Origin: a virus
Length of the DNA stretch: 64,000 nt
Direction: 5' to 3' (one strand)
Virus record (IMG/VR): IMGVR_UViG_3300046002_004036
Span: 1 to 64,000 of that record
Shown here piece by piece: positions 43,980 through 58,248 of this stretch. The notes under the pieces are model-generated. The model saw nothing but the letters and a program-made list of their open reading frames with translations. It was not told where the DNA came from and did no database searches. The translations under genes were made by a program, and so were the position numbers. Numbering within the stretch: the first letter of the stretch is position 1; every line of letters starts with the position of its first letter.

Positions 43980-44906
43980 TTATTTTAGCATAGAGATGAT
44001 TGAATTGTCAAACTGGAATTCCAATTTTTTAATTGCATCATCATCCATATCGCCGATATCTTTATATTTTTTATCTAACTGTATTACTGTAACAAGGTGA
44101 CCTAGTTTTTCAACTAGTTTATCTTTCATGATAGAGCCAGCCTCATCATTATCTGCAACCAGTACAACATTATTGAAGTACTTTGCTAATAACTTAATCT
44201 GCGAAGCAGACACATTAGCACCCAGCGTTGCAACTGCTGGGAAACCTACTTGATCTAGTCTTATAGCATCAAATGATGATTCAACTACATAGACTGTTGT
44301 TGATGTTTTAACCTTGTGCAAGTTAAACAAAATTTTACTTTTTGGTAGTCCAGGAGTATTTTTAAAATCTTTACCCTCAACTGTTCTAGCAACAAAACCA
44401 ATACACATTCCATCAGGTGTTGCCATTGGAATAATTACTGAATCTTGCTTTTCAGAAAATCCTAGATTAAATTTTACCACAGAATCTTTTGTAATGCTGC
44501 GACCTTCAAAATATCTCATTGCTCTTGGTGACTCAAGCGCTTGATTATTTAATCTTTTAATTAATACTTCGTCATACTGAACAAAATCAGCGGGTGCGTA
44601 TAAAGCTTTATCAATTATTGATGAAAGGTTTGACTCTTGTTCTTTGCTTTTAATATATCTTGCTGCTTCAAAGTATGTTCTGTTTGACATAAACATAATT
44701 AACTCTGTTAAATTCTTAGTCACTTGACAGCCAAAACAAAAAAACAAACCAGACTCTTTGGATACTTCTCCTGCAGGTGTTCTGTTGTTATTGTGATAAG
44801 GACAGAATATAATAAAGTCAGATCCAAACTCTGCTTCAATATCAATTCCTGCCCCGTTAAGAACACGGCGGATTTGATCCTCTGTGTATATATCGTTACT
44901 TGCCAT
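43980..44906 (-). CDS. dnaG: DNA primase (CHC2 zinc finger + Toprim)
   Basis: CPYH..CFGC, VVESSFD, DND. Confidence 0.9.
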   Translation of the reverse strand: MASNDIYTEDQIRRVLNGAGIDIEAEFGSDFIIFCPYHNNNRTPAGEVSKESGLFFCFGCQVTKNLTELIMFMSNRTYFEAARYIKSKEQESNLSSIIDKALYAPADFVQYDEVLIKRLNNQALESPRAMRYFEGRSITKDSVVKFNLGFSEKQDSVIIPMATPDGMCIGFVARTVEGKDFKNTPGLPKSKILFNLHKVKTSTTVYVVESSFDAIRLDQVGFPAVATLGANVSASQIKLLAKYFNNVVLVADNDEAGSIMKDKLVEKLGHLVTVIQLDKKYKDIGDMDDDAIKKLEFQFDNSIISMLK

Positions 44907-46119
44907 CTTCAAAATCCTTATAACGATAATAACCTTTGTCAAAGTCACACTGAACCAGAAAGTCTCCCATAAAACCATTACGGTTCTTTCTGAAAGCACA
45001 TTCAATAATGTCGCTATTAGTTGCACGACCCATTGCTAAAACCCAGTCAGCATCATATGCAATCTGCCTAGACCATGCAGTCTGTGCAAGTGTTGGAACT
45101 GTAGATAGATCTTTTACATCGTCTGGTGTAGCAGATGAAATAGCAATAATAGGTACTTCTTCACCAATAGCCATTAGTTTAAGTTCTCGTGAAAGGTTTT
45201 TCATCTTTACCGTTTCATTATCAGCTTTTTGATTTGGATTCATTAGCTGGAGATAATCTACTACAACAAAATCAGGCTTGTATTGATCTAGTTTTCCACG
45301 AATAATAGATGGTGTTACTTCACCACCTGAGTCATTTGAGATAATATGAAATGGTGGACGACCTTCAATTTTATCTGCATGCCATTTTTTCATCATATCA
45401 AGTTCTACTTCACCGTTTGACAACTTGCGATGAGACCAAAGACCTTCACCCATAATTGTAAATGCACGATTACGTACTTCTGTTTCACTCATTTCAAGTG
45501 AGATTACAAGGGGTGTCTTACCCTGCTTCCAGGCCTGTACAGCAAAGTAGAGAGCCATCCAAGACTTTCCTATGCCTGGGTATGCTAAGAAGACTCCTAG
45601 TTGACCTGGCATAATTCCAGAAGGTAGATAATTATCAAACCCTGGCAAACCTGTTTTGATTCCTCTATGACCTAGACGATGCTGCTCTTTAACTTGTTCA
45701 AAGTATGCAATTGCAGAATCAATATCTGTTGCATCAATATCTCTAATTGCTGCTGTATTCTTTTTTAACTGTGATGTTTTTGTAATTAATTCTTCAAGGG
45801 CTTGGCCTCCTTGCCCATTTTGTACTTCTCCTGCTGCAGATCGTAAAATATCTTTAAGGCTATCATTTAAATATTCTGATTGTAATTCTTCAAGGTGATG
45901 CTTTGTTGCACCTATACCCTGGACTGGTTGAAAGTCTCTAAACTTTTCAACTACCAAAGATGTTGGTGGAACAGTGCCATTATTTTCTGCATACAATCTA
46001 ATAAAATTCCACACGTCATTATGTGTGCGAAGCAATGTTTCTACATTTGCCTGTAGCAAAACGTGAAGTTGTTTATCTGCTAGGACTGCGGAGATTACTT
46101 TTGCTTCTGTATTATTCAC
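44896..46119 (-). CDS. dnaB: replicative helicase
   Basis: AYPGIGKS, SLEMS, VDYLQLM, KNRNG. Confidence 0.95.
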   Translation of the reverse strand: MNNTEAKVISAVLADKQLHVLLQANVETLLRTHNDVWNFIRLYAENNGTVPPTSLVVEKFRDFQPVQGIGATKHHLEELQSEYLNDSLKDILRSAAGEVQNGQGGQALEELITKTSQLKKNTAAIRDIDATDIDSAIAYFEQVKEQHRLGHRGIKTGLPGFDNYLPSGIMPGQLGVFLAYPGIGKSWMALYFAVQAWKQGKTPLVISLEMSETEVRNRAFTIMGEGLWSHRKLSNGEVELDMMKKWHADKIEGRPPFHIISNDSGGEVTPSIIRGKLDQYKPDFVVVDYLQLMNPNQKADNETVKMKNLSRELKLMAIGEEVPIIAISSATPDDVKDLSTVPTLAQTAWSRQIAYDADWVLAMGRATNSDIIECAFRKNRNGFMGDFLVQCDFDKGYYRYKDFEDGK

Positions 46120-47785: not shown

Positions 47786-48058
47786 CTATATAAAGTCAGG
47801 GACATCTTGTACTGCGCCCCATTTTCCTAGTGGGCATTCAGCATGTGGAAGTTTTGCCTTTTGAGCCATAAAGCATCCACATTTTTTGCATTGTCCAGTA
47901 GACTTAAGAAATGACGGACATTTTTTGCATAGACTATATCTATCATTAAATGTTTCTTTATCTACGTTTTCAATTTTTGGATTTAATAGGTCCCACGGCC
48001 TTGCTGCATCCCCTGCGCTTTTTTCTTTCCAAAGTTGCCAAGCAGATTTTTCTGTCAT
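47786..48058 (-). CDS. DUF6171-like Cys-rich protein
   Basis: RYSLCKKC..QCKKCGCFM..K...CPLGKW. Confidence 0.8.
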   Translation of the reverse strand: MTEKSAWQLWKEKSAGDAARPWDLLNPKIENVDKETFNDRYSLCKKCPSFLKSTGQCKKCGCFMAQKAKLPHAECPLGKWGAVQDVPDFI

Positions 48059-48337: not shown

Positions 48338-50908
48338 TTAATTAATTTGAAAATCATCAAATTGAGTTCCGCCACTGCCTGTTCCTGGCGGTGTTTTTAT
48401 TATTCCAAAAGCGCTCTGGCCTACAAGCGAAGATTTTGTTGGGTTTGATGCGGTATAAGATTTTGTAGTTATTGTTGAACTTCTTGCCGTATTAGAATAT
48501 AATGTTGTAGATATATTATTACCTGAAGTGGATACAGAAATTCCACCAATTGTTGATGGAGATTCTTCATTTGAAAAAATATTTTCTGTATTAACTGTAG
48601 AAACACTAGAACCATCCGCTTTTAATGTATCAAGTCTTGTATTATAAACAGTTACACTAGATGAGCTATTTGAACAATTTGTTGGTAGCGATCCTCCATA
48701 TTGTGTATTTGGTCCAACAGTACATCCATAAACTGAAGCATCATATTCTGTTGTAGAAGCAGAACTGTCATAGACTGTTGTATTTACGTATGCATCATAT
48801 ACAATAGTTGAACCTGGATAATCGTATACGGTTGTATTTGTAGAAACAGAACTGTCATAAACGGTTGTATTTACGTATGCATCATATATAATAGTTGAAC
48901 TTGTAGAGTCGTATATAGTTGTATTTACAGTTGCATCATATACAAGAAATCCATTTACGAATCTTGTTTTGCAGTTATTTCCAGCACTTCCTAGACCGTT
49001 ATTTGGGCAACTACTTGAAGTTCTTGTTTTGCAATTGCTTCCAGCACTTCCCGATCCATTGTCTGGGCAGGAGCTTGTAGTTCTTGATTTACAGTTACTA
49101 AATAAGTTTCCTGATCCATTATTTGGGCAAGTACTTGAGGTTCTTGACTTACAGTTGCTTCCAGCACTTCCCGATCCATTGTCTGGGCAAGAAGTAGAAC
49201 TCACAGTTCTTGACTTACAGTTGCTTCCAGCACTTCCCGATCCATTGTCTGGGCAAGTACCTACAGTTCTTTGTTTACAATAGCTCAATAAATTTCCTGA
49301 GCTATTGTCTGGGCAAGTACTTACAGTTCTTGTTTTGCAATTGCTTCCAGCACTTCCAGAGCTGTTATCTGGGCAACTGGTAACAATTCTTGTTTTACAG
49401 TTAGTTCCTAAGCTTCCTGTATTGTTATCTGGGCAAGTAGGAATAGTTGCAGTTGTATAATATACATATTTAGTTACAGCAGATGAAGTTTTATTAACTC
49501 TTGAAGCCCACCAAGACCCAGCATCTGTTGACCAAAATGTTAGTCCAAGGCCTTCCGAGCCAGAAGGAAAACTAGCAGAAACAACTGCATCGGTAGTTCC
49601 ATCTAAAATAACTGATTGTTGCGGATATGTAGTTGGAGTTGATCCCGAAACAGTACTTGTAATAGATGCTACAGAACCGTTAACGCTCCAAAGAGAACCG
49701 TTAGAGCTAAGGCTATATATATAGGAATTTGGACTCATAGCAGAATTAATAATTGGAGTCATTGTACCTAATCCCCCAGATACCGTTCTTGTATAATTAT
49801 CTATTACTTGACCAATTTTTGCATCAATTGATGAACTGTAGTAGTAGTAAAATGTTGTTCCATCAAGTGCAAGAACTTCGTCAATATAGTAAAAATAATA
49901 TTTTGGGGCAGTAGCATCATTTTGATTTACATTATATGGAGAAGAACCTGCATTAGATATAGATGAACTGGTTAATCCACTTGTTAGTGGGGTAGAAAAA
50001 ATTGTTCTTCCAATGTATGAAGTTTTAGATTGAAATGTTCCAGATTGATAAGTACCAGATGTTCCAGTTATTGCTGCAAATGCGTACCCAGTTCCACTAA
50101 TAGATGGGGAAGTTAATTGAGTTGGAACAGGTGAGGCATTTGTAGTAATTGTTAAAGTATTTGAATCATTACCTTGATAGCCTCTATATGTAGCATTTAT
50201 ACCAGTAATTGGAATTACTTTAAAATCATAAGATGTGCTGGATAAAAGACTAGATATTGTTGCTGTAGTTCCAGATTCTACTGAAGAAAATGAAAAAGTG
50301 GCATCTGAAGATAATTTGTAATAAACTAAATAATTAGCAGCATTTGCCGCGGCGGTAGAAGTCCAATTAATACTAACTGAGTTATATGTGTGGCTTGTTT
50401 CTACAATTGTTATATTTTCTGGCCCATATATAGTTGTATTGCCAGAAGTTGATGATGCGGAGGTGGAATAAGTTGAATTAGTAGCAGTTACAACATACCT
50501 ATATATATTAGTAGCATTTGGAGATACGTCAGTTAAATTATTTTGTAATAAATATGTATTTGTATTACTTGATCCAGAAGATGGATTAGTTGCGGATCCA
50601 GATGCTATTTGTGTCCAATTTGTTCCGCTATCTGTACTTTTATCAAATCTATATGTCATTCCAGTTGAATTAATCCAATAATAGTTTGTTCCAGTTAATG
50701 TTTTAGCATATGTTATTCCATCAGTAGATTGTGATATTGTTACCGTATTTTGAATTGATGGGGTTAAAGAAGAAGAAAATATTAATTTCCAAGATCCCGA
50801 AACTTTTAAATATGCAGAAGAAAGATTTTTCCAGACATCAGAATTTTTTAAATATACAGATGCTACATTTCTCCAGTCCCCATCACTCCCCTTTAGTTTT
50901 ATTGTCAT
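48338..50908 (-). CDS. tail fibre/receptor-binding protein (Ig/FN3 domains, lectin-like C-terminal domain with Cys-repeat insert)
   Basis: triple W-K/R N-terminal repeats, FN3, Ser/Thr-rich; in tail module. Confidence 0.85.
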   Translation of the reverse strand: MTIKLKGSDGDWRNVASVYLKNSDVWKNLSSAYLKVSGSWKLIFSSSLTPSIQNTVTISQSTDGITYAKTLTGTNYYWINSTGMTYRFDKSTDSGTNWTQIASGSATNPSSGSSNTNTYLLQNNLTDVSPNATNIYRYVVTATNSTYSTSASSTSGNTTIYGPENITIVETSHTYNSVSINWTSTAAANAANYLVYYKLSSDATFSFSSVESGTTATISSLLSSTSYDFKVIPITGINATYRGYQGNDSNTLTITTNASPVPTQLTSPSISGTGYAFAAITGTSGTYQSGTFQSKTSYIGRTIFSTPLTSGLTSSSISNAGSSPYNVNQNDATAPKYYFYYIDEVLALDGTTFYYYYSSSIDAKIGQVIDNYTRTVSGGLGTMTPIINSAMSPNSYIYSLSSNGSLWSVNGSVASITSTVSGSTPTTYPQQSVILDGTTDAVVSASFPSGSEGLGLTFWSTDAGSWWASRVNKTSSAVTKYVYYTTATIPTCPDNNTGSLGTNCKTRIVTSCPDNSSGSAGSNCKTRTVSTCPDNSSGNLLSYCKQRTVGTCPDNGSGSAGSNCKSRTVSSTSCPDNGSGSAGSNCKSRTSSTCPNNGSGNLFSNCKSRTTSSCPDNGSGSAGSNCKTRTSSSCPNNGLGSAGNNCKTRFVNGFLVYDATVNTTIYDSTSSTIIYDAYVNTTVYDSSVSTNTTVYDYPGSTIVYDAYVNTTVYDSSASTTEYDASVYGCTVGPNTQYGGSLPTNCSNSSSSVTVYNTRLDTLKADGSSVSTVNTENIFSNEESPSTIGGISVSTSGNNISTTLYSNTARSSTITTKSYTASNPTKSSLVGQSAFGIIKTPPGTGSGGTQFDDFQIN
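48722..48943 (-). repeat. 8 x ~27-nt [VI]YD repeats (return array)
   Basis: YD spacing 9,9,9,11,9,9,9 aa. Confidence 0.9.
48962..49438 (-). repeat. 8 x ~60-nt CPxNxxGxxxxxCKxR repeats (outgoing array)
   Basis: CP spacing 20,20,20,22,20,20,20 aa. Confidence 0.95.
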
Positions 50909-50917
50909 ATTATTACC

Positions 50918-53314
50918 TTAAGGGGTATACACCAATAAGACTGAGCCATTGCCTGCATCTGGAAAAGCCGTAGGATTGCTTCCAAATGCAGATGTTGTAA
51001 TAGTGTACATATTTCTTAATCCACCTGATCTATAGTCTTCAGCACTACCACTATATGATCCAGATATTTGTGCATTTTTTGCAATTTCAACTTGGCGACC
51101 TTCTTGCCCTAAAGAAAGTCTATAGATAAACGTTGATCCAGTTGCTGACTCATCACCTGCAATATCATATCTTTTAAAATCTGTATACATTAGGTATTGC
51201 GAAAGGTTATCATCATAGATTAAAAAGTCAGATCCTGTGTTACTTTGAATTGAATAGTTTCCTACTTTTATTCTTCCAGTGCCAGTTGAAATAATTCCTG
51301 CTTCATCAATAGTCCAACCATTTGTAAGGGTTCCTAGATAACCACCTCCTGCTTTTATATCTCCAGTAATCTCTGCATCTGTTGCAAATACTTTACCTGC
51401 TACTGTTACTCTAAACTTGTTTGCTGTATCATTTGGGCCTGTTCCGTTACCCGCCCAAAATACAGAATGAGTTACATCATTTCCTGGGCTATTAATGCCA
51501 GCCTTGTATGTGCTAATAGATGAATTTGAAACTGCAATGTATCCATTAGTTGAGTCTATTTCTATATTACCTTTTCCAGATATTGACGTTTTAAAAATAC
51601 TACTTGATGATACGTCCCAGCCTCCGATATTTGCAGAGGCGGTAGTTAGTTTTCCATTGCTTGCATCAATTGTTGTAATACCTGATACAGAAGATGAGTT
51701 AAATGTTAAACCTGAAGAGTTTAATATGTACCCAGCACCTGAAAGGCTGCCCGAAACTATAGTTCCTGAATATAAAGATCCTCCAGAAATTATTCCAACA
51801 TTGCCAGCAAAGTATCCACTTCTTGCAGTTATGTCTCCATCAATTGTAAATGTAGATCCATCCCAAGAAATATAGTTTGTCGTGCTTCCGCCTACTTTTA
51901 ATGATGCTGATTGTGCTGAGTCTATATACCAATAGTTATGTGTATTAAATACTAAACCTCTTTTACCAGTATCTACTCCATATCCAAATTTAAATGTTCC
52001 AGTATCGGTTCCACTTACTCCTGCTTGAAAATATCCTGTAGTTGATACATTTGTTCCTATAAACGGTGTTCCGCTAATTGCAACATTTGAGCCAGCAATG
52101 TAAGAAGTAGAATCGTTATTGTATTCATCGTATGTAGCAACTGCAAATTCATATGTTAGTCCTACTCCTAAACCAGATAACCTGTATGCCGTTCCAGTAC
52201 CTGGTGAGTCGGCATATGAGTAGGATGATACAGGACTTGTTACTGGTCTATATCTTATTCTGTATCCACGAATACCGCCAGTTGTGACGGCAGCCCAAGA
52301 AATATCTGCATAACCATTAAACCCAATTGTTCCAGTAGTATCTAATCCGCCTGTTGTTGTAACTGTTGCTACATCTGCTGGTCCTGTTGTATCTGCTACA
52401 ACTGGGTTTGTTGGAGTAATTTTGTATGCAGTTGAAAATGGTGTTGCAAGTCCCGCATCTGAATAAAACCTTGCCTTAACCCAACGTGCATTAAAGTTTG
52501 AAGTAATAATATTTGCGGGATTAACTGTTCCAAAATATGATCTAAGATAAGTAACTCCTGTTGGAGCAGTAGAACTTGTTGACTCATATTCTACAATTTC
52601 AATTGAGTTATATCGTGCTTCAGTTGGTGTGGTATAGGCAACGCTATAACCAGCATTGATTGCTGTTACAGTAATTGTTGGGGTTGGTAGGTCTAAGGTA
52701 TAGGTAGGAATAGATGCAACACACGCTGTGCTACTTTTATTATAAAATGGATCTATTGATAAAACGCAGATGGCTGTAAATACTGTTCTTTGGATTCCAA
52801 ACATTGATTCGTTTAGTGCTTTTGTTACTGTAAGGGTTTGTGCGGTTTGAGTTCTATTTACTAAAAATGATTGAAGGGGTGTTTGCTTTGTTACTCCATC
52901 TGCGGTTAGTTCAACTATAAATTCAGATACCGTTGAATTTAATGAGTCCAAATAATCCCAGTTAAAACCAATTACTAGATCATCTCCAGACCAAGATGCA
53001 GTAACACTTGATACTGCAGTTGGCGTAACTGCTCCATAACCAGTTTTATAACCTGGATTTCCATTAGATGGTGGAACATACTGTTTTTCTTTTGTTCCCG
53101 AAGGGTTTGCAGATCCTTTTACTCCTGTAGGATTAGAAGTGTTGGTTCCCCCAGAAGCTATCAGCTTTCCGTCAAAACCAACAATATCAATTTCTGCACC
53201 TTGACGTGATTTTGTTTGTGAAACTTTATTCCAAGCAACTCTAGGGTCATCAGCACTTATTGGTACCGTGGGATTTTTTGCAACGCTTTTGCCACTTTTA
53301 TATTTTGAGTTCAT
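50918..53314 (-). CDS. minor tail protein with FN3 domains
   Basis: FN3 (GLGVGLTYEFAVA), beta-rich fibre repeats. Confidence 0.8.
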   Translation of the reverse strand: MNSKYKSGKSVAKNPTVPISADDPRVAWNKVSQTKSRQGAEIDIVGFDGKLIASGGTNTSNPTGVKGSANPSGTKEKQYVPPSNGNPGYKTGYGAVTPTAVSSVTASWSGDDLVIGFNWDYLDSLNSTVSEFIVELTADGVTKQTPLQSFLVNRTQTAQTLTVTKALNESMFGIQRTVFTAICVLSIDPFYNKSSTACVASIPTYTLDLPTPTITVTAINAGYSVAYTTPTEARYNSIEIVEYESTSSTAPTGVTYLRSYFGTVNPANIITSNFNARWVKARFYSDAGLATPFSTAYKITPTNPVVADTTGPADVATVTTTGGLDTTGTIGFNGYADISWAAVTTGGIRGYRIRYRPVTSPVSSYSYADSPGTGTAYRLSGLGVGLTYEFAVATYDEYNNDSTSYIAGSNVAISGTPFIGTNVSTTGYFQAGVSGTDTGTFKFGYGVDTGKRGLVFNTHNYWYIDSAQSASLKVGGSTTNYISWDGSTFTIDGDITARSGYFAGNVGIISGGSLYSGTIVSGSLSGAGYILNSSGLTFNSSSVSGITTIDASNGKLTTASANIGGWDVSSSSIFKTSISGKGNIEIDSTNGYIAVSNSSISTYKAGINSPGNDVTHSVFWAGNGTGPNDTANKFRVTVAGKVFATDAEITGDIKAGGGYLGTLTNGWTIDEAGIISTGTGRIKVGNYSIQSNTGSDFLIYDDNLSQYLMYTDFKRYDIAGDESATGSTFIYRLSLGQEGRQVEIAKNAQISGSYSGSAEDYRSGGLRNMYTITTSAFGSNPTAFPDAGNGSVLLVYTP

Positions 53315-53892: not shown

Positions 53893-56800
53893 TTATTGTA
53901 TCCTTTTAAGTCCCAGCCTTGTTTCAAGGCCTTGATTAAATGAGTGAGATACAGAATGAACAAAATATTTTTGCTGGCTTATACCATTTAGAGAATAAGT
54001 AAGAGTAATTATGTCTCCAACTTGGATTAAAGGATTACCAAATATACTAAGGTTGGCATCTTTTGAAAAACCTTCAATTCCCATTTGTACCAGCTTAAGC
54101 ATTCTTTGTGCTGCTTGCTTTGACTGTATCCATTCTGAGTCTAGTTGTGCTACTTCTGAGCTATTAGATTGATCAATCAATACCTCCAAAATTTCAGGGT
54201 CAGAAGGAGCAACAATTTCATGTGTCCAGAGATTTAAGTTAATTGTAAATTGATCAAGGTCATCTGCCTCTTTATGTAAAAATACCATGTTTGATGAATT
54301 ATTAGCAATTACCATCTTTGCTCTAAATCCTGTGTTAATTGGGGTTGAGTAAGAAAGTGAATATTCATCAATTAACTTTTTTTGATAATTAGTCTGATCT
54401 TCTTTTTCATTTCCTGGAAAATAATACCACATATATTCAACTGGTAACACATCTACTGAAACTGCTGCAGGAGTTGTATATTGAACATCGTAATAGTTAA
54501 TTCCAGCTACTTCAGGGCTTGTCTGCATTAAATAAGTAATTGAATTTGAGTATAGTGGTTGACCTTGGACTAAACCATTTAAAAATTCTCTATCTTGGTA
54601 AAAATAACTAACGCTTCTTTCTGTTAATGCTTTTTCTGTTGCATGAATTTCTCTAAGGGCGGCAGGAGAAACTCTTGTTCCCTGATCAAAATATTCAGGT
54701 TCTGGGTGTAGATCTGGAACCATTGTAGGATACATTGATGCATGAAAGCCAAACTTAGTTCCTGTTTGAATGTCATCATCAAAGTATGGTTTTTGTCTCA
54801 TACCAGTTAAACCATTTACTTCAGTTGATTTCCAGCCAGAACCTCCAGGATTTGTTGTTACATCATAATCATCTGTTTTAGATTCTTGCCATCCAACTAT
54901 TTCTACGTTGTTTAAAAATATTGATAAAATTATTTTGTTGTTTCCTACGGTACCGCTTTCTCCATCTGAACCATCTGAAGAAGTTATTGCAACTTTTAAA
55001 TTAAATGGGTTATCTGTTACATAAGAGTATTCATATTCTTTACCAACCAAAGTTTTTTTAATTATCTTTGAAAAATTATTTACGATACTGTTACACTCTC
55101 CAGTAACCTCTGACCAAAACATTACACCAGTTGTTACATTTTTTGCTAATAATACATACTTGTATTTTGGTGGATCGTAAAGATCTCCTGGTGATTTTGG
55201 ATTTTCTTGGTTATACCTTACAAGCTCAATAAAATAAGCTTCTGCAGAAGATGTTGTACTTGCCATGTTAAAGAATAGACCAGCAGAAGCCACAGACTGA
55301 TCTGGCATATCAAACTTTACAGAATAGGTGTGATAACCTATATCTGTTTCAGTTGTTGGATATATGAGAAGTTTATTATTTATACCAATATCATATATGG
55401 TTTCACTAACGTTTATTTTTGAAATGCTTGGCAAAGTACTTTCATTATCATTGTCATCTATTATTGATGTATATCCTGAAGATGTTGCTAATGCAAGGGT
55501 TGAATCATTAAATCGTTTTTCAGAAAGACTCTTGCTGGCTAAAGTAGTAATTCTTGTATGTGCTGCTGGCACTGTTCCATATAGTCCACGCTGAACATTT
55601 GTAATATTTCCAGTAGGAGTTACTATAACTTCATAGTCAAACGGAACTGTTGCCTCTCCGCCAGAGACATAAGTGCCTGCTGCTGGATCAATAATTGAAA
55701 AAGAAGTATTTGTTCTGCTAGAAATAATTCCATTTATGTTATATGTTTTAGGATTAACTGCAGTGACAATCACTTTTTGTCCTACCTTAAAAGTATTTGC
55801 TGCCGTATAAACTACTGCGCTTCCGCTTCTAGCAACATTTGTAACAGTTGCATAAGAAGTTTTTAGCCCAACATTATTTTGTTTAATAAAATTGTTTATT
55901 TCCGATTGAAGTTCCGTATCATTTTTTATTGAAACTGTAATTGGACTTTCTCCAAACTTTCCAATCTCATATTCTTTATAAAGAAATGAAACAATTTCAT
56001 TTTCAATAAAAGCATAACCACTTGCATCACGATTAAAAGTATGAAAAATGTCTTGAAGATCATTAACATTTATGTTAAACATATTTGAATTTTTTTCCAT
56101 GTTGCTATTTATATAGTTAAACCCAACAGAGTCTATGCTTTGTTGCTGCCATACAACATCATTAGATGTTGCATAAACAAAAGATGGAGAATTTTTAACC
56201 ATTGGGTTTGTAACATTTTGTAAAGAAGGAGATTGTTTAACTTTAGGAATTTGATATCTTAAAGAAATTTTTCCTGGCTTTGCTTTATTAGAGATAGAAA
56301 ATCCACCTTGTTTAATGTTAAAGTCTGAGACTGTTAGATTAGATGTGCTTGAAGATAAAATATTATGCAAACTTAAAAATTTCATAATTCCATATTCATC
56401 AATATATGCTCCAATTTGATAAGCAACAAATATCTTATTAAGTGTGTCTACAATAGTTGAGTCTTTTGAGTTGCAGTAAAAGTATGCTAGATCCATTGGA
56501 TTAGCTTTATTGTTACAAACGTTGTAAAGAGAGTCATAGTCGTAATCTGTAAAACCAGCCAAATCAAGAATATTAGTGATTACATCAAATACGTTTTTTA
56601 AGTTAACTACATAATCAGGAACTGGGGTTGATTGGAGATATCTTGAGATATCAAAAGACTGAATAGAAACTGTATCTATATCTGATTCATCCCAAGAGTC
56701 TGAATAAAATACCCCTGCTGGAACATAGGCTGTTGTAGATGTTACGGTATTTGTAGATAAATCAGAGTACTCAAAAAGATTAAAATTAACATAAAACTTA

Positions 56801-58248
56801 ATATTTTTTCTAAGAATACTTGAAAGCAATGTAGAGGCACTATCGCTTTGACTAGAAAAAACATTAACTATTTCATTATTATATAAAAGTGGTATTGCTG
56901 AAAGTGTTATGTTACAACTGTTTGTGTTCATTGAGGAAATAGGCAATAGATTATTTTGTCCGTCTAAGGATTTATCTATTGATATATTTTCAACAAAACT
57001 TGATAAATCTACTTCAAGTCTTGGAGAAACCTCAACAAGTTGCATCTTGACTAAATCACTAGTTAAATTAGCATTGTCATAAGAAGAAAATTCGGATCTG
57101 GTTGTTTTTGATATTTGTGATACAGATAATGATGTTAATGACATTGTTTGGCTTATAGACCCAGAACTTGTAAAACTAGGCATAGAAGACCACTTTGTTT
57201 TTGTCCATTCCGAGCCTGTGTAGTATAGAGTCAATAGACCTGTGGTAAAACTATCTGCGTTAGCTGGCATAGATATGGTTTCACTGCCGTCAACACTAAT
57301 AAAAGAATTATTTACTTTTATTTTTATTGAAGGTATTGTTACTAGTGTATTAAACTTAACAATAATTTTGTTAGTAAGAATACCCTTTTCATATTTTGCC
57401 GTTATCATATTACTTGTACCATCTGAAACAAAATATTTATAAGCAGAAATGTCTGTTGGTAAAGCACTCTTTAGTGCTGGTACTGGGGAAGATGCTAGAA
57501 AAAATGACGGCATTTGCGTTATAGAACTTATTGGAGAATATACAGCAGATGTATAACCAGTTATTGTAGGTGAGGTAATTTTTCTATAATTAGAAGGAAA
57601 TAAACAATTTATATTTCCAGATGGTACGTATGACTCACCTGGTCTAAAGTATGAGAAAACGCTATCGGTTGGCCAAAAAGATCCATACTTATAGTCCTCA
57701 TAAGAGGTTTTGTATACTTCTGGTACCGTAAAATATACTATTGGATTATCAGTTATACCACTTAAAACATTAAAATTAACTCTATAAGTAAATGAAGATA
57801 TAGTATCTCCTGATGCTTGCGATGTTCCAATGTATGTGGTAATTTTAGTCCACCCAAGAGAACTAACTTCTTCTTGGGTTGATCCGTATTGACTACTTGT
57901 TCCTTCGGCAAAAGCAGTAGCCATAATTGGCATAGAGTTATTTGTTTTTACATAGGTAATTATTTTATATGCTTTACCGCCATTAGCAGTAACAGAATAT
58001 TGTAAAAAACCTTGTCCACTTGACATTGTAAATTTTTTAGTTGTAAAGTTAGGTTTTGATTCACCTGTGGTTGCAGAAGCTAGGGTACCCGTAGAAGAAG
58101 GCGATGTTAAGCTCATTGCTGTAATATCACCTGCAATAGTTACATAAGGTGGATTAAATAAGTTATGATTCCACTCAGCAGAAACTACGGGGACTAAACC
58201 AATTGAATCAGAATCATTAAAGATTGCAGAGTTAATGTTATCTAACAC
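53893..58248 (-). CDS. large tail-tip/central tail protein
   Basis: 1451 aa; C-terminal GNPLIQVGDII hub motif. Confidence 0.8.
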   Translation of the reverse strand: MLDNINSAIFNDSDSIGLVPVVSAEWNHNLFNPPYVTIAGDITAMSLTSPSSTGTLASATTGESKPNFTTKKFTMSSGQGFLQYSVTANGGKAYKIITYVKTNNSMPIMATAFAEGTSSQYGSTQEEVSSLGWTKITTYIGTSQASGDTISSFTYRVNFNVLSGITDNPIVYFTVPEVYKTSYEDYKYGSFWPTDSVFSYFRPGESYVPSGNINCLFPSNYRKITSPTITGYTSAVYSPISSITQMPSFFLASSPVPALKSALPTDISAYKYFVSDGTSNMITAKYEKGILTNKIIVKFNTLVTIPSIKIKVNNSFISVDGSETISMPANADSFTTGLLTLYYTGSEWTKTKWSSMPSFTSSGSISQTMSLTSLSVSQISKTTRSEFSSYDNANLTSDLVKMQLVEVSPRLEVDLSSFVENISIDKSLDGQNNLLPISSMNTNSCNITLSAIPLLYNNEIVNVFSSQSDSASTLLSSILRKNIKFYVNFNLFEYSDLSTNTVTSTTAYVPAGVFYSDSWDESDIDTVSIQSFDISRYLQSTPVPDYVVNLKNVFDVITNILDLAGFTDYDYDSLYNVCNNKANPMDLAYFYCNSKDSTIVDTLNKIFVAYQIGAYIDEYGIMKFLSLHNILSSSTSNLTVSDFNIKQGGFSISNKAKPGKISLRYQIPKVKQSPSLQNVTNPMVKNSPSFVYATSNDVVWQQQSIDSVGFNYINSNMEKNSNMFNINVNDLQDIFHTFNRDASGYAFIENEIVSFLYKEYEIGKFGESPITVSIKNDTELQSEINNFIKQNNVGLKTSYATVTNVARSGSAVVYTAANTFKVGQKVIVTAVNPKTYNINGIISSRTNTSFSIIDPAAGTYVSGGEATVPFDYEVIVTPTGNITNVQRGLYGTVPAAHTRITTLASKSLSEKRFNDSTLALATSSGYTSIIDDNDNESTLPSISKINVSETIYDIGINNKLLIYPTTETDIGYHTYSVKFDMPDQSVASAGLFFNMASTTSSAEAYFIELVRYNQENPKSPGDLYDPPKYKYVLLAKNVTTGVMFWSEVTGECNSIVNNFSKIIKKTLVGKEYEYSYVTDNPFNLKVAITSSDGSDGESGTVGNNKIILSIFLNNVEIVGWQESKTDDYDVTTNPGGSGWKSTEVNGLTGMRQKPYFDDDIQTGTKFGFHASMYPTMVPDLHPEPEYFDQGTRVSPAALREIHATEKALTERSVSYFYQDREFLNGLVQGQPLYSNSITYLMQTSPEVAGINYYDVQYTTPAAVSVDVLPVEYMWYYFPGNEKEDQTNYQKKLIDEYSLSYSTPINTGFRAKMVIANNSSNMVFLHKEADDLDQFTINLNLWTHEIVAPSDPEILEVLIDQSNSSEVAQLDSEWIQSKQAAQRMLKLVQMGIEGFSKDANLSIFGNPLIQVGDIITLTYSLNGISQQKYFVHSVSHSFNQGLETRLGLKRIQ

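Follow-up and report, generated by a model that had tools for sequence, protein, structure and literature searches.

Within a window of 64,000 nucleotides (nt) of viral DNA, comprising positions 1 to 64,000 of the IMG/VR record IMGVR_UViG_3300046002_004036, we examined a tail-protein gene from the open reading frame list (48338..50908, minus strand) that closes the tail module and encodes a protein of 856 amino acids (aa). The C-terminal part of this protein carries two unlike tandem arrays, an outgoing array of Cys-pair modules and a return array of shorter Y-D units, and among its homologues the two arrays co-vary, in nested order, in copy number, in insertions and deletions (indels) and in module type. 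The two arrays are probably the arms of one nested hairpin-like stalk, inserted in the C-terminal body of a freshwater siphophage protein of the tail-fibre type. From the sequence comparison we infer that the arms would pair physically, that the stalk would take the form of an extended ribbon, that its cysteines would form disulfides and that it would serve in binding. The phage is known from metagenomes only. Given that an identical protein occurs on 21 contigs, the arrays are no assembly accident.

Matched arrays and their register

The repeat region at 48722..49438 corresponds exactly to aa 491-729 and contains the following features.

48962..49435, minus strand: outgoing array of eight modules, each with an 11-residue loop between two Cys and then the linker K-x-R-T-V-x-T
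49190..49216, minus strand: linker after module 4, the sole 9-residue linker (+2; script count)
48944..48961, minus strand: turn FVNGFL, aa 650-655, read from the sequence
48722..48943, minus strand: return array of eight [VI]-Y-D units, aa 656-729 (script count)
48830..48862, minus strand: return unit 4, the sole 11-residue unit (+2), which faces the +2 linker in antiparallel register

By script, the C-P-x-N...C modules begin at aa 492, 512, 532, 552, 574, 594, 614 and 634, so that the outgoing period is 20 aa (22 for module 4), while the return period is 9 aa (11 for unit 4). A preliminary description, made from the letters of this region, had reported eight Cys-pair modules, a turn and then eight YD units, with one +2 insertion per array between units 4 and 5, and the script count agreed on all of these points, with a linker of 9 residues after module 4 and 11 residues in return unit 4. 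It had also matched the GNLL/GNLF variants of modules 3 and 6 with the two YDAYV returns, which are units 3 and 6, and had pointed out that the sole Gly of the inter-module linkers (after module 3) faces the sole Gly of the inner return units (unit 5) in antiparallel register only; both observations held, and further glycines occur in the turn (NG) and at the base (YGC). The repeats lie well beyond chance expectation: Tandem Repeats Finder reported an array of period 60 with 7.2 copies and a score of 360. It also reported two higher-order periods, one of 186 nt, in which modules 2-4 align with 5-7 (80% matches), and one of 87 nt, in which returns 2-4 align with 5-7 (88% matches), and these indicate a three-unit duplication in both arrays. 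In a DNA unit identity matrix for P0001, the return units show a clear period of 3, and the outgoing modules are too uniform to separate mirrored from tandem duplication.

The array-bearing set comprised 14 proteins, namely the product of 48338..50908 and 13 proteins from protein searches. Counted by hand and by script, outgoing modules and return units were equal in number in every one of them: 7:7 in ten, 8:8 in P0001, P0002 and P0003, and 10:10 in P0005. The preliminary description had proposed that a change in length needs a matched change in two separate DNA tracts, and had suggested comparing Cys-module with YD counts across homologues; equal counts at 7, 8 or 10 are what this proposal predicts, and independent variation of the two counts was not seen. 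Random re-pairing of the observed counts would match all of them in 1 of 4004 arrangements, a figure that is descriptive only. No protein with just one of the two arrays was present among the protein-search matches, and scans of viral contigs and metagenomes yielded no array-bearing members beyond that set. A search for shorter forms returned one fragment, and an annotated phage collection contained no relative, its one match being spurious and of low complexity. Across the 14 proteins, the C, P, N, G, C and R of the modules and the Y and D of the return units show little or no variation.

A tree of the flanking, non-repeat domains placed the 10:10 protein as sister to a 7:7 protein, P0001 and P0002 next to another 7:7 protein, and P0003 in a group with two 7:7 proteins. 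Given that the 10:10 protein and two separate 8:8 clades each stand beside 7:7 proteins, the count has changed at least three times, and in both arrays. In the same tree, array-free relatives nest among array-bearing ones, and a short-loop variant occurs in two clades.

The direction in which the arms correspond was indicated by insertions. In each array-bearing protein, a single linker has 9 residues and a single return unit has 11, and these two occupy mirror positions counted from the turn: the 4th in P0001, the 2nd in P0003 and the 1st in the rest. A parallel register fails for the +2 pairs in all but P0001, which is symmetric. Loop length varies among homologues (8, 10, 11 or 12) while the return period stays unchanged, and in none of the 14 proteins does linker length change without a matching change in the return array. 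Moreover, a module minus its loop (20 - 11) leaves 9 residues, which is the return period. Taken together, the free loop length, the compensated linker and this arithmetic suggest that the loop is a Cys-closed excursion and that the linker lies beside the return arm.

Module types point to the same antiparallel register. Of 28 G-S-T-S-S-N loops, 27 have an antiparallel partner of the type Y-D-[NST]-[YF], and exactly 27 such units exist, against 11 pairs in parallel register. Among the short loops, 8/8 have as partner a V-S-D unit, with Ser in place of Tyr, compared with 0 in parallel, and first modules pair with the last-unit type in 11/11. A module with N-N-I-V-N-C-G-V-T-V pairs with R-Y-D-S-T in three proteins, although it stands at a different place in each (module 7 of 10, 5 of 7 and 4 of 7), and both P0002 and P0010 combine three S-T-S-S-N loops with three Y-D-N-Y units within one protein. 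Shifted registers, like the parallel one, do not fit the module types. Mirrored indels and module-type pairing thus support the earlier proposal of units divided between outgoing and return segments in a nested antiparallel arrangement.

Given that the module-type patterns were post hoc, we also ran blind register statistics. The pooled similarity correlation was 0.31 in the antiparallel register and ∼0 in the parallel one, against a null of 0.05 ± 0.056, for which one random register was applied in common to all 7-unit proteins with orthology kept; 0 of 3000 random registers reached 0.31. Total mutual information was 38.0 antiparallel and 29.7 parallel, with an orthology-keeping null of 28.6 ± 1.1 and a maximum of 33.5. 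The strongest covarying columns were loop positions 5 and 8-10 with return positions 3-4, which is the neighbourhood independently predicted by the indel register, and the most variable positions were those of the loop and the facing return residues.

Base, tip and relatives with other modules

Correspondence between the arms extends to the base of the arrays. In 12 proteins, two extra degenerate Cys-loop modules (4 Cys, 35-38 aa) precede module 1, and the basal return is 16 aa longer in exactly those 12, while P0001 and P0002 are without both features. At the other end, the short turn gives way in most homologues to a hairpin module of disulfide type, C-P-S-G-Y-x-L-x-G-x-x-C-Y, which was lost in P0001 and P0003, members of separate clades.

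Distant relatives have the body and the C-terminal domain in common with the array-bearing proteins and carry other inserts at the same site. Their counts were made by eye or from post hoc patterns and are supportive only. Four-Cys modules occur with T-T-Y-S-W-x-T-R-S units at 2:2 (P0037, P0040), 4:4 (P0038) and ∼5-6 per side (P0047), and C-T-G-x-x-I-S-T-N-x-x-G-x-G-C-G-G-C modules occur with T-Y-S-C-N units at 1:1 (P0049), 2:2 (P0039) and 3:3 (L013, near-copies).

Two arrangements among these relatives differ from that of the 856-aa protein. In L013:1479-3960 (also in L014, L015 and L019), three T-S-Y-S-C-N-T-P units come first and three C-T-G-G-P-I-S-T-D..G-C-G-G-C modules come last, while in P0039 two Cys modules come first and two units last, so that the array order is swapped in L013 and the pair type is equal. 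In P0037 and P0040 (the latter equal to L010:1125-3522), which have two module pairs, a ∼110-aa Cys-rich domain stands between the arms, as if it were a head on a short nested stalk. A close homologue, P0035 (548 aa, on a contig of 2930 nt; 73% identity), follows the family sequence to ...GSWWA and then continues in unrelated Arg-rich sequence exactly at the expected start of the array; the probable cause is a frameshift, or a break in the assembly, at the repeats.

A probable nested stalk and its alternatives

In the arrangement that we propose, each outgoing module would form an 11-residue loop with its ends joined by the two Cys, most likely in a disulfide, followed by the 7-residue linker K-x-R-T-V-x-T. 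The 9 residues per module that are left without the loop equal the period of the return unit (V-Y-D-x-x-V-x-T-T), the linker of module k would run antiparallel to the return arm, and loop k would lie beside the residues that follow Y-D in unit n+1-k. Each rung would then be a composite knob encoded by two DNA tracts ∼100-700 nt apart, and the length of the stalk could be altered only via matched gain or loss in both arms. The stalk would project from the body and display a row of variable knobs, the likely target being the host surface, and the stalks of relatives would also display the tip hairpin or the ∼110-aa Cys-rich head. The variability of the loops and of the return residues that face them, higher than at any other positions, would suit a role in host binding. 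With extended arms, eight rungs would span ∼24 nm, and the preliminary description, which pictured a long beta-ribbon, had suggested that such a length could tune receptor reach.

Of the 239 residues at aa 491-729, 46 are Ser, 34 Thr, 26 Asn and 23 Gly, and none is His, of which the whole protein has one. The number of Cys is even in 14/14 array-bearing proteins, each module pair is charge-balanced, and the linker Arg and the Asp of the return unit are invariant. The conservation of Arg and Asp, the charge balance, the even Cys count and the absence of His fit disulfides together with salt bridges across the arms, without proving either.

Structure prediction was confident outside the stalk only. 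For the full-length protein with a 14-row alignment, AlphaFold2 gave a confident model of aa 1-366, whereas aa 367-856 had a predicted local distance difference test (pLDDT) score <50 and the stalk scored 25-35. When aa 470-760 were modelled alone, the mean pLDDT was 34, and the single hairpin drawn by the program is not trustworthy. Three copies of aa 478-750 modelled as a complex gave an uncertain fold that speaks neither for nor against a trimer. The ESM Atlas provided no usable feature match, its structural neighbours having meaningless template modelling (TM) scores of <= 0.31, and no match in sequence searches of Pfam (E<=1), PHROG or the PDB covered the stalk.

Several points weigh against the nested stalk and have to be set beside the evidence for it. 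The 14 array-bearing proteins are mutually related, which reduces the independent events to ∼3 to 5, and the module-type patterns were drawn up with the pairing already in view. P0005 contains one S-S-S-S-N loop that is without the expected partner type. Similarity tests on single proteins were mixed, and P0001 and P0002 fit a parallel register as well or better. These two proteins fail to discriminate direction because their arrays are internally periodic, with period 3, and palindromic; the preliminary description had itself warned that the symmetry of the +2 insertions and of the module types in an 8:8 protein leaves the direction unfixed, and the tests on P0001 and P0002 behaved likewise. 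Given the mixed results for single proteins, we relied on the pooled and cross-protein tests, and it is the other homologues alone that establish the direction. The low-pLDDT models, which say nothing either way, give the proposed pairing of the arms no structural support. Finally, it is difficult to see how a two-stranded ribbon of ∼24 nm, poor in hydrophobic residues, would be stable as a monomer.

This last difficulty would be eased if module k and unit n+1-k formed a rung of ∼29 residues in a compact split-rung solenoid, with a rise of ∼0.5 nm per rung and a block of ∼4 nm in total. The same co-variation of count and type would follow, the stacked body would have a real core and be easier to picture for a single chain, and disulfide-braced beta-helices are known, for example in the Tenebrio antifreeze protein. 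We nevertheless consider a solenoid of this kind unlikely, as it offers no reason for a +2 linker to be matched by a +2 return while loop length is free, leaves unexplained why a module minus its loop equals the return period, and does not suit the relatives in which a ∼110-aa head between two module pairs looks like a stalk with a tip. Tenebrio-type antifreeze proteins are built from short Thr/Ser/Cys-rich tandem repeats with one disulfide per repeat, but each of their repeats is contiguous and belongs to a single array, whereas here every unit would be split between two arrays. An ordinary contiguous solenoid does not describe our observations either, as two unlike arrays with units of 20 and 9 aa co-vary in mirror order.

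The nested stalk could also exist in a form in which the cysteines bind metal or bridge the chains of a trimer, and in which an arm may pair with the return of another chain. In favour of this form, fibres of phages are as a rule trimeric, axial metal ions hold the T4 gp37 needle, and virions assemble in a reducing cytoplasm. The stalk, however, is without His and has two Cys per module only, the loop shrinks from 11 to 8 residues without change elsewhere, which fits closure by its own two Cys, and the Cys count is always even, so that metal or inter-chain bridging seems improbable to us. That the arrays fold apart as two successive shaft segments, with equal counts arising from exchange of a central segment between phages or by chance, is in our judgement very improbable. 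Stalk types have clearly been exchanged between lineages, as shown by the nesting of array-free relatives and by the short-loop variant in two clades, and if contiguous tip segments were swapped, the basal units would stay orthologous in a count from either end. Yet segment exchange alone does not give equal counts in 14/14 proteins, and separate folding leaves unexplained the equal numbers of matching types within one protein (P0002, P0010), the three positions at which +2 insertions mirror each other, the basal modules that come and go together with the longer basal return, and the same rule in other module chemistries, including one case of swapped order.

By analogy, the T4 gp37 needle is the nearest counterpart of the proposed nested stalk in working principle. 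Bartual et al., in 2010, are said to have described a gp37 chain that runs to the tip and back, with a short motif repeated in both directions. The needle is a trimer with seven iron atoms along its length (PMC6957217). Like the needle, the proposed stalk would be an out-and-back distal fibre part whose length is set by two separate stretches of chain, and the mirrored counts, indels and module types in our proteins suggest an antiparallel course of the gp37 type. In contrast to the His-x-His motifs and iron of gp37, this stalk has Cys pairs and no His; it has no sequence, Pfam or PHROG similarity to gp37, and it consists of two unlike countable arrays (20 aa and 9 aa) that vary in step between relatives.

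Other systems resemble the proposed stalk in part. In SMC, Rad50 and MukB, an outgoing and a returning segment form a long antiparallel coiled-coil stalk, and their lengths have to remain matched in evolution. Those stalks are built from helical heptad repeats, whereas the arms here are Ser/Thr/Gly-rich with Cys-closed loops, and the units are discrete modules with recognisable partner types; the low-pLDDT AlphaFold2 models contain no helix in the stalk. In the adhesin gp38 of S16-type phages, conserved glycine-rich motifs alternate with hypervariable loops that are the likely host-binding surface. The two have in common a conserved repetitive scaffold presenting a series of variable loops, but the motifs of gp38 do not form a nested pair of arrays that agree in copy number, and there is no sequence similarity. 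Literature searches retrieved no family of repeats in which a single chain holds two unlike tandem arrays with mirrored co-variation, and to our knowledge none is known.

The stalk may be taken as a variant of the out-and-back fibre shaft, with a fair chance that a solved structure would show a distinct repeat class. The fuller claim, to which we give slightly less than even chances, is that these proteins represent an undescribed class of split or nested tandem repeats, in which disulfide-braced ladder rungs would be assembled from two tracts and expand in matched fashion, in at least three chemistries and in both orders, to give an adjustable freshwater-phage stalk with host-binding knobs. 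Tandem repeats normally grow or shrink one array at a time, and coupled arrays with no mismatched intermediates among natural sequences offer a testable case of structural coupling shaping repeat evolution. If true, a fibre shaft that is adjustable in length and bears many variable loops would here be built in a novel manner, in phages that infect very abundant freshwater bacteria that are hard to culture. It also concerns a conserved, highly regular region that lacks a confident AlphaFold2 model and for which the comparative register supplies explicit pair restraints.

Flanking domains and the tail module

Four further segments of the protein surround the stalk.

50774..50908, minus strand: N-terminal segment, aa 1-45, with three short W...YLK-type strands (AlphaFold2 pLDDT ∼75)
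50123..50761, minus strand: tandem FN3-like domains, ∼aa 50-262 (AlphaFold2 pLDDT ∼90)
49439..50125, minus strand: conserved body domain, aa 262-490, which ends in ...GSWWAS...YVYYT just before the stalk
48341..48721, minus strand: C-terminal domain, aa 730-856, conserved across the wider family

The N-terminal segment is probably the virion attachment part. Its motif of three W-K/R-N-V...Y-L-K strands and the FN3 region are common to dozens of otherwise unlike metagenomic proteins, and matches P0075-P0119 to this motif and region have 45-50% identity over 15-20% of the query; the two may constitute a widespread attachment module that is combined with distal parts of many kinds. Foldseek matched ∼aa 50-262 to FN3 tandems (E ∼1e-8), and a PDB profile search matched FN3 domains only, so that the FN3 assignment covers the N-terminal part of the protein and excludes the stalk. 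The body domain has many invariant alignment columns and is common to relatives with other stalks; neither a family match nor a confident model (AlphaFold2 pLDDT <50 from aa 367 on) was obtained for the body and flanking domain, which the preliminary description had called lectin-like. At the C-terminal domain, the Cys pair C729/C745 is invariant and provides the sole cysteines outside the modules.

The neighbouring genes place 48338..50908 within the phage genome.

58754..63850: tape measure protein (PHROG match), upstream of 48338..50908
53893..58248: minor tail protein (PHROG match), upstream of 48338..50908
50918..53314, minus strand: 798-aa fibre-like protein with an FN3 match, directly upstream of 48338..50908
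44896..46119: DnaB-like helicase, among the replication genes beyond the tail gene

Given that tail genes come before 48338..50908 and replication genes after it, this gene is the last of a siphovirus-type tail module, and the PHROG matches place it downstream of the tape measure and distal tail genes. Gene position is the sole basis for labelling its product a tail fibre. The upstream neighbour 50918..53314 is also kept beside a homologue on contig L009 (L009:1453-3498; 31% identity, E 2e-30). Its product has a long Gly/Ser/Thr-rich region, its conserved C-terminal end (...RSGGLRNMYT...LLVY) recurs in the product of L009:1453-3498, and it probably represents a further fibre or spike protein.

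The product of 47786..48058 (minus strand), located two genes downstream from the stalk gene, is 90 aa long, contains several cysteine pairs of the C-x-x-C type and belongs to phrog_13558, of unknown function. The open frames at 48969..49283 (plus strand; 104 aa) and 48991..49179 (minus strand; 62 aa) overlap the array in other reading frames and are themselves repetitive, and they look like by-products of the repeats rather than genes.

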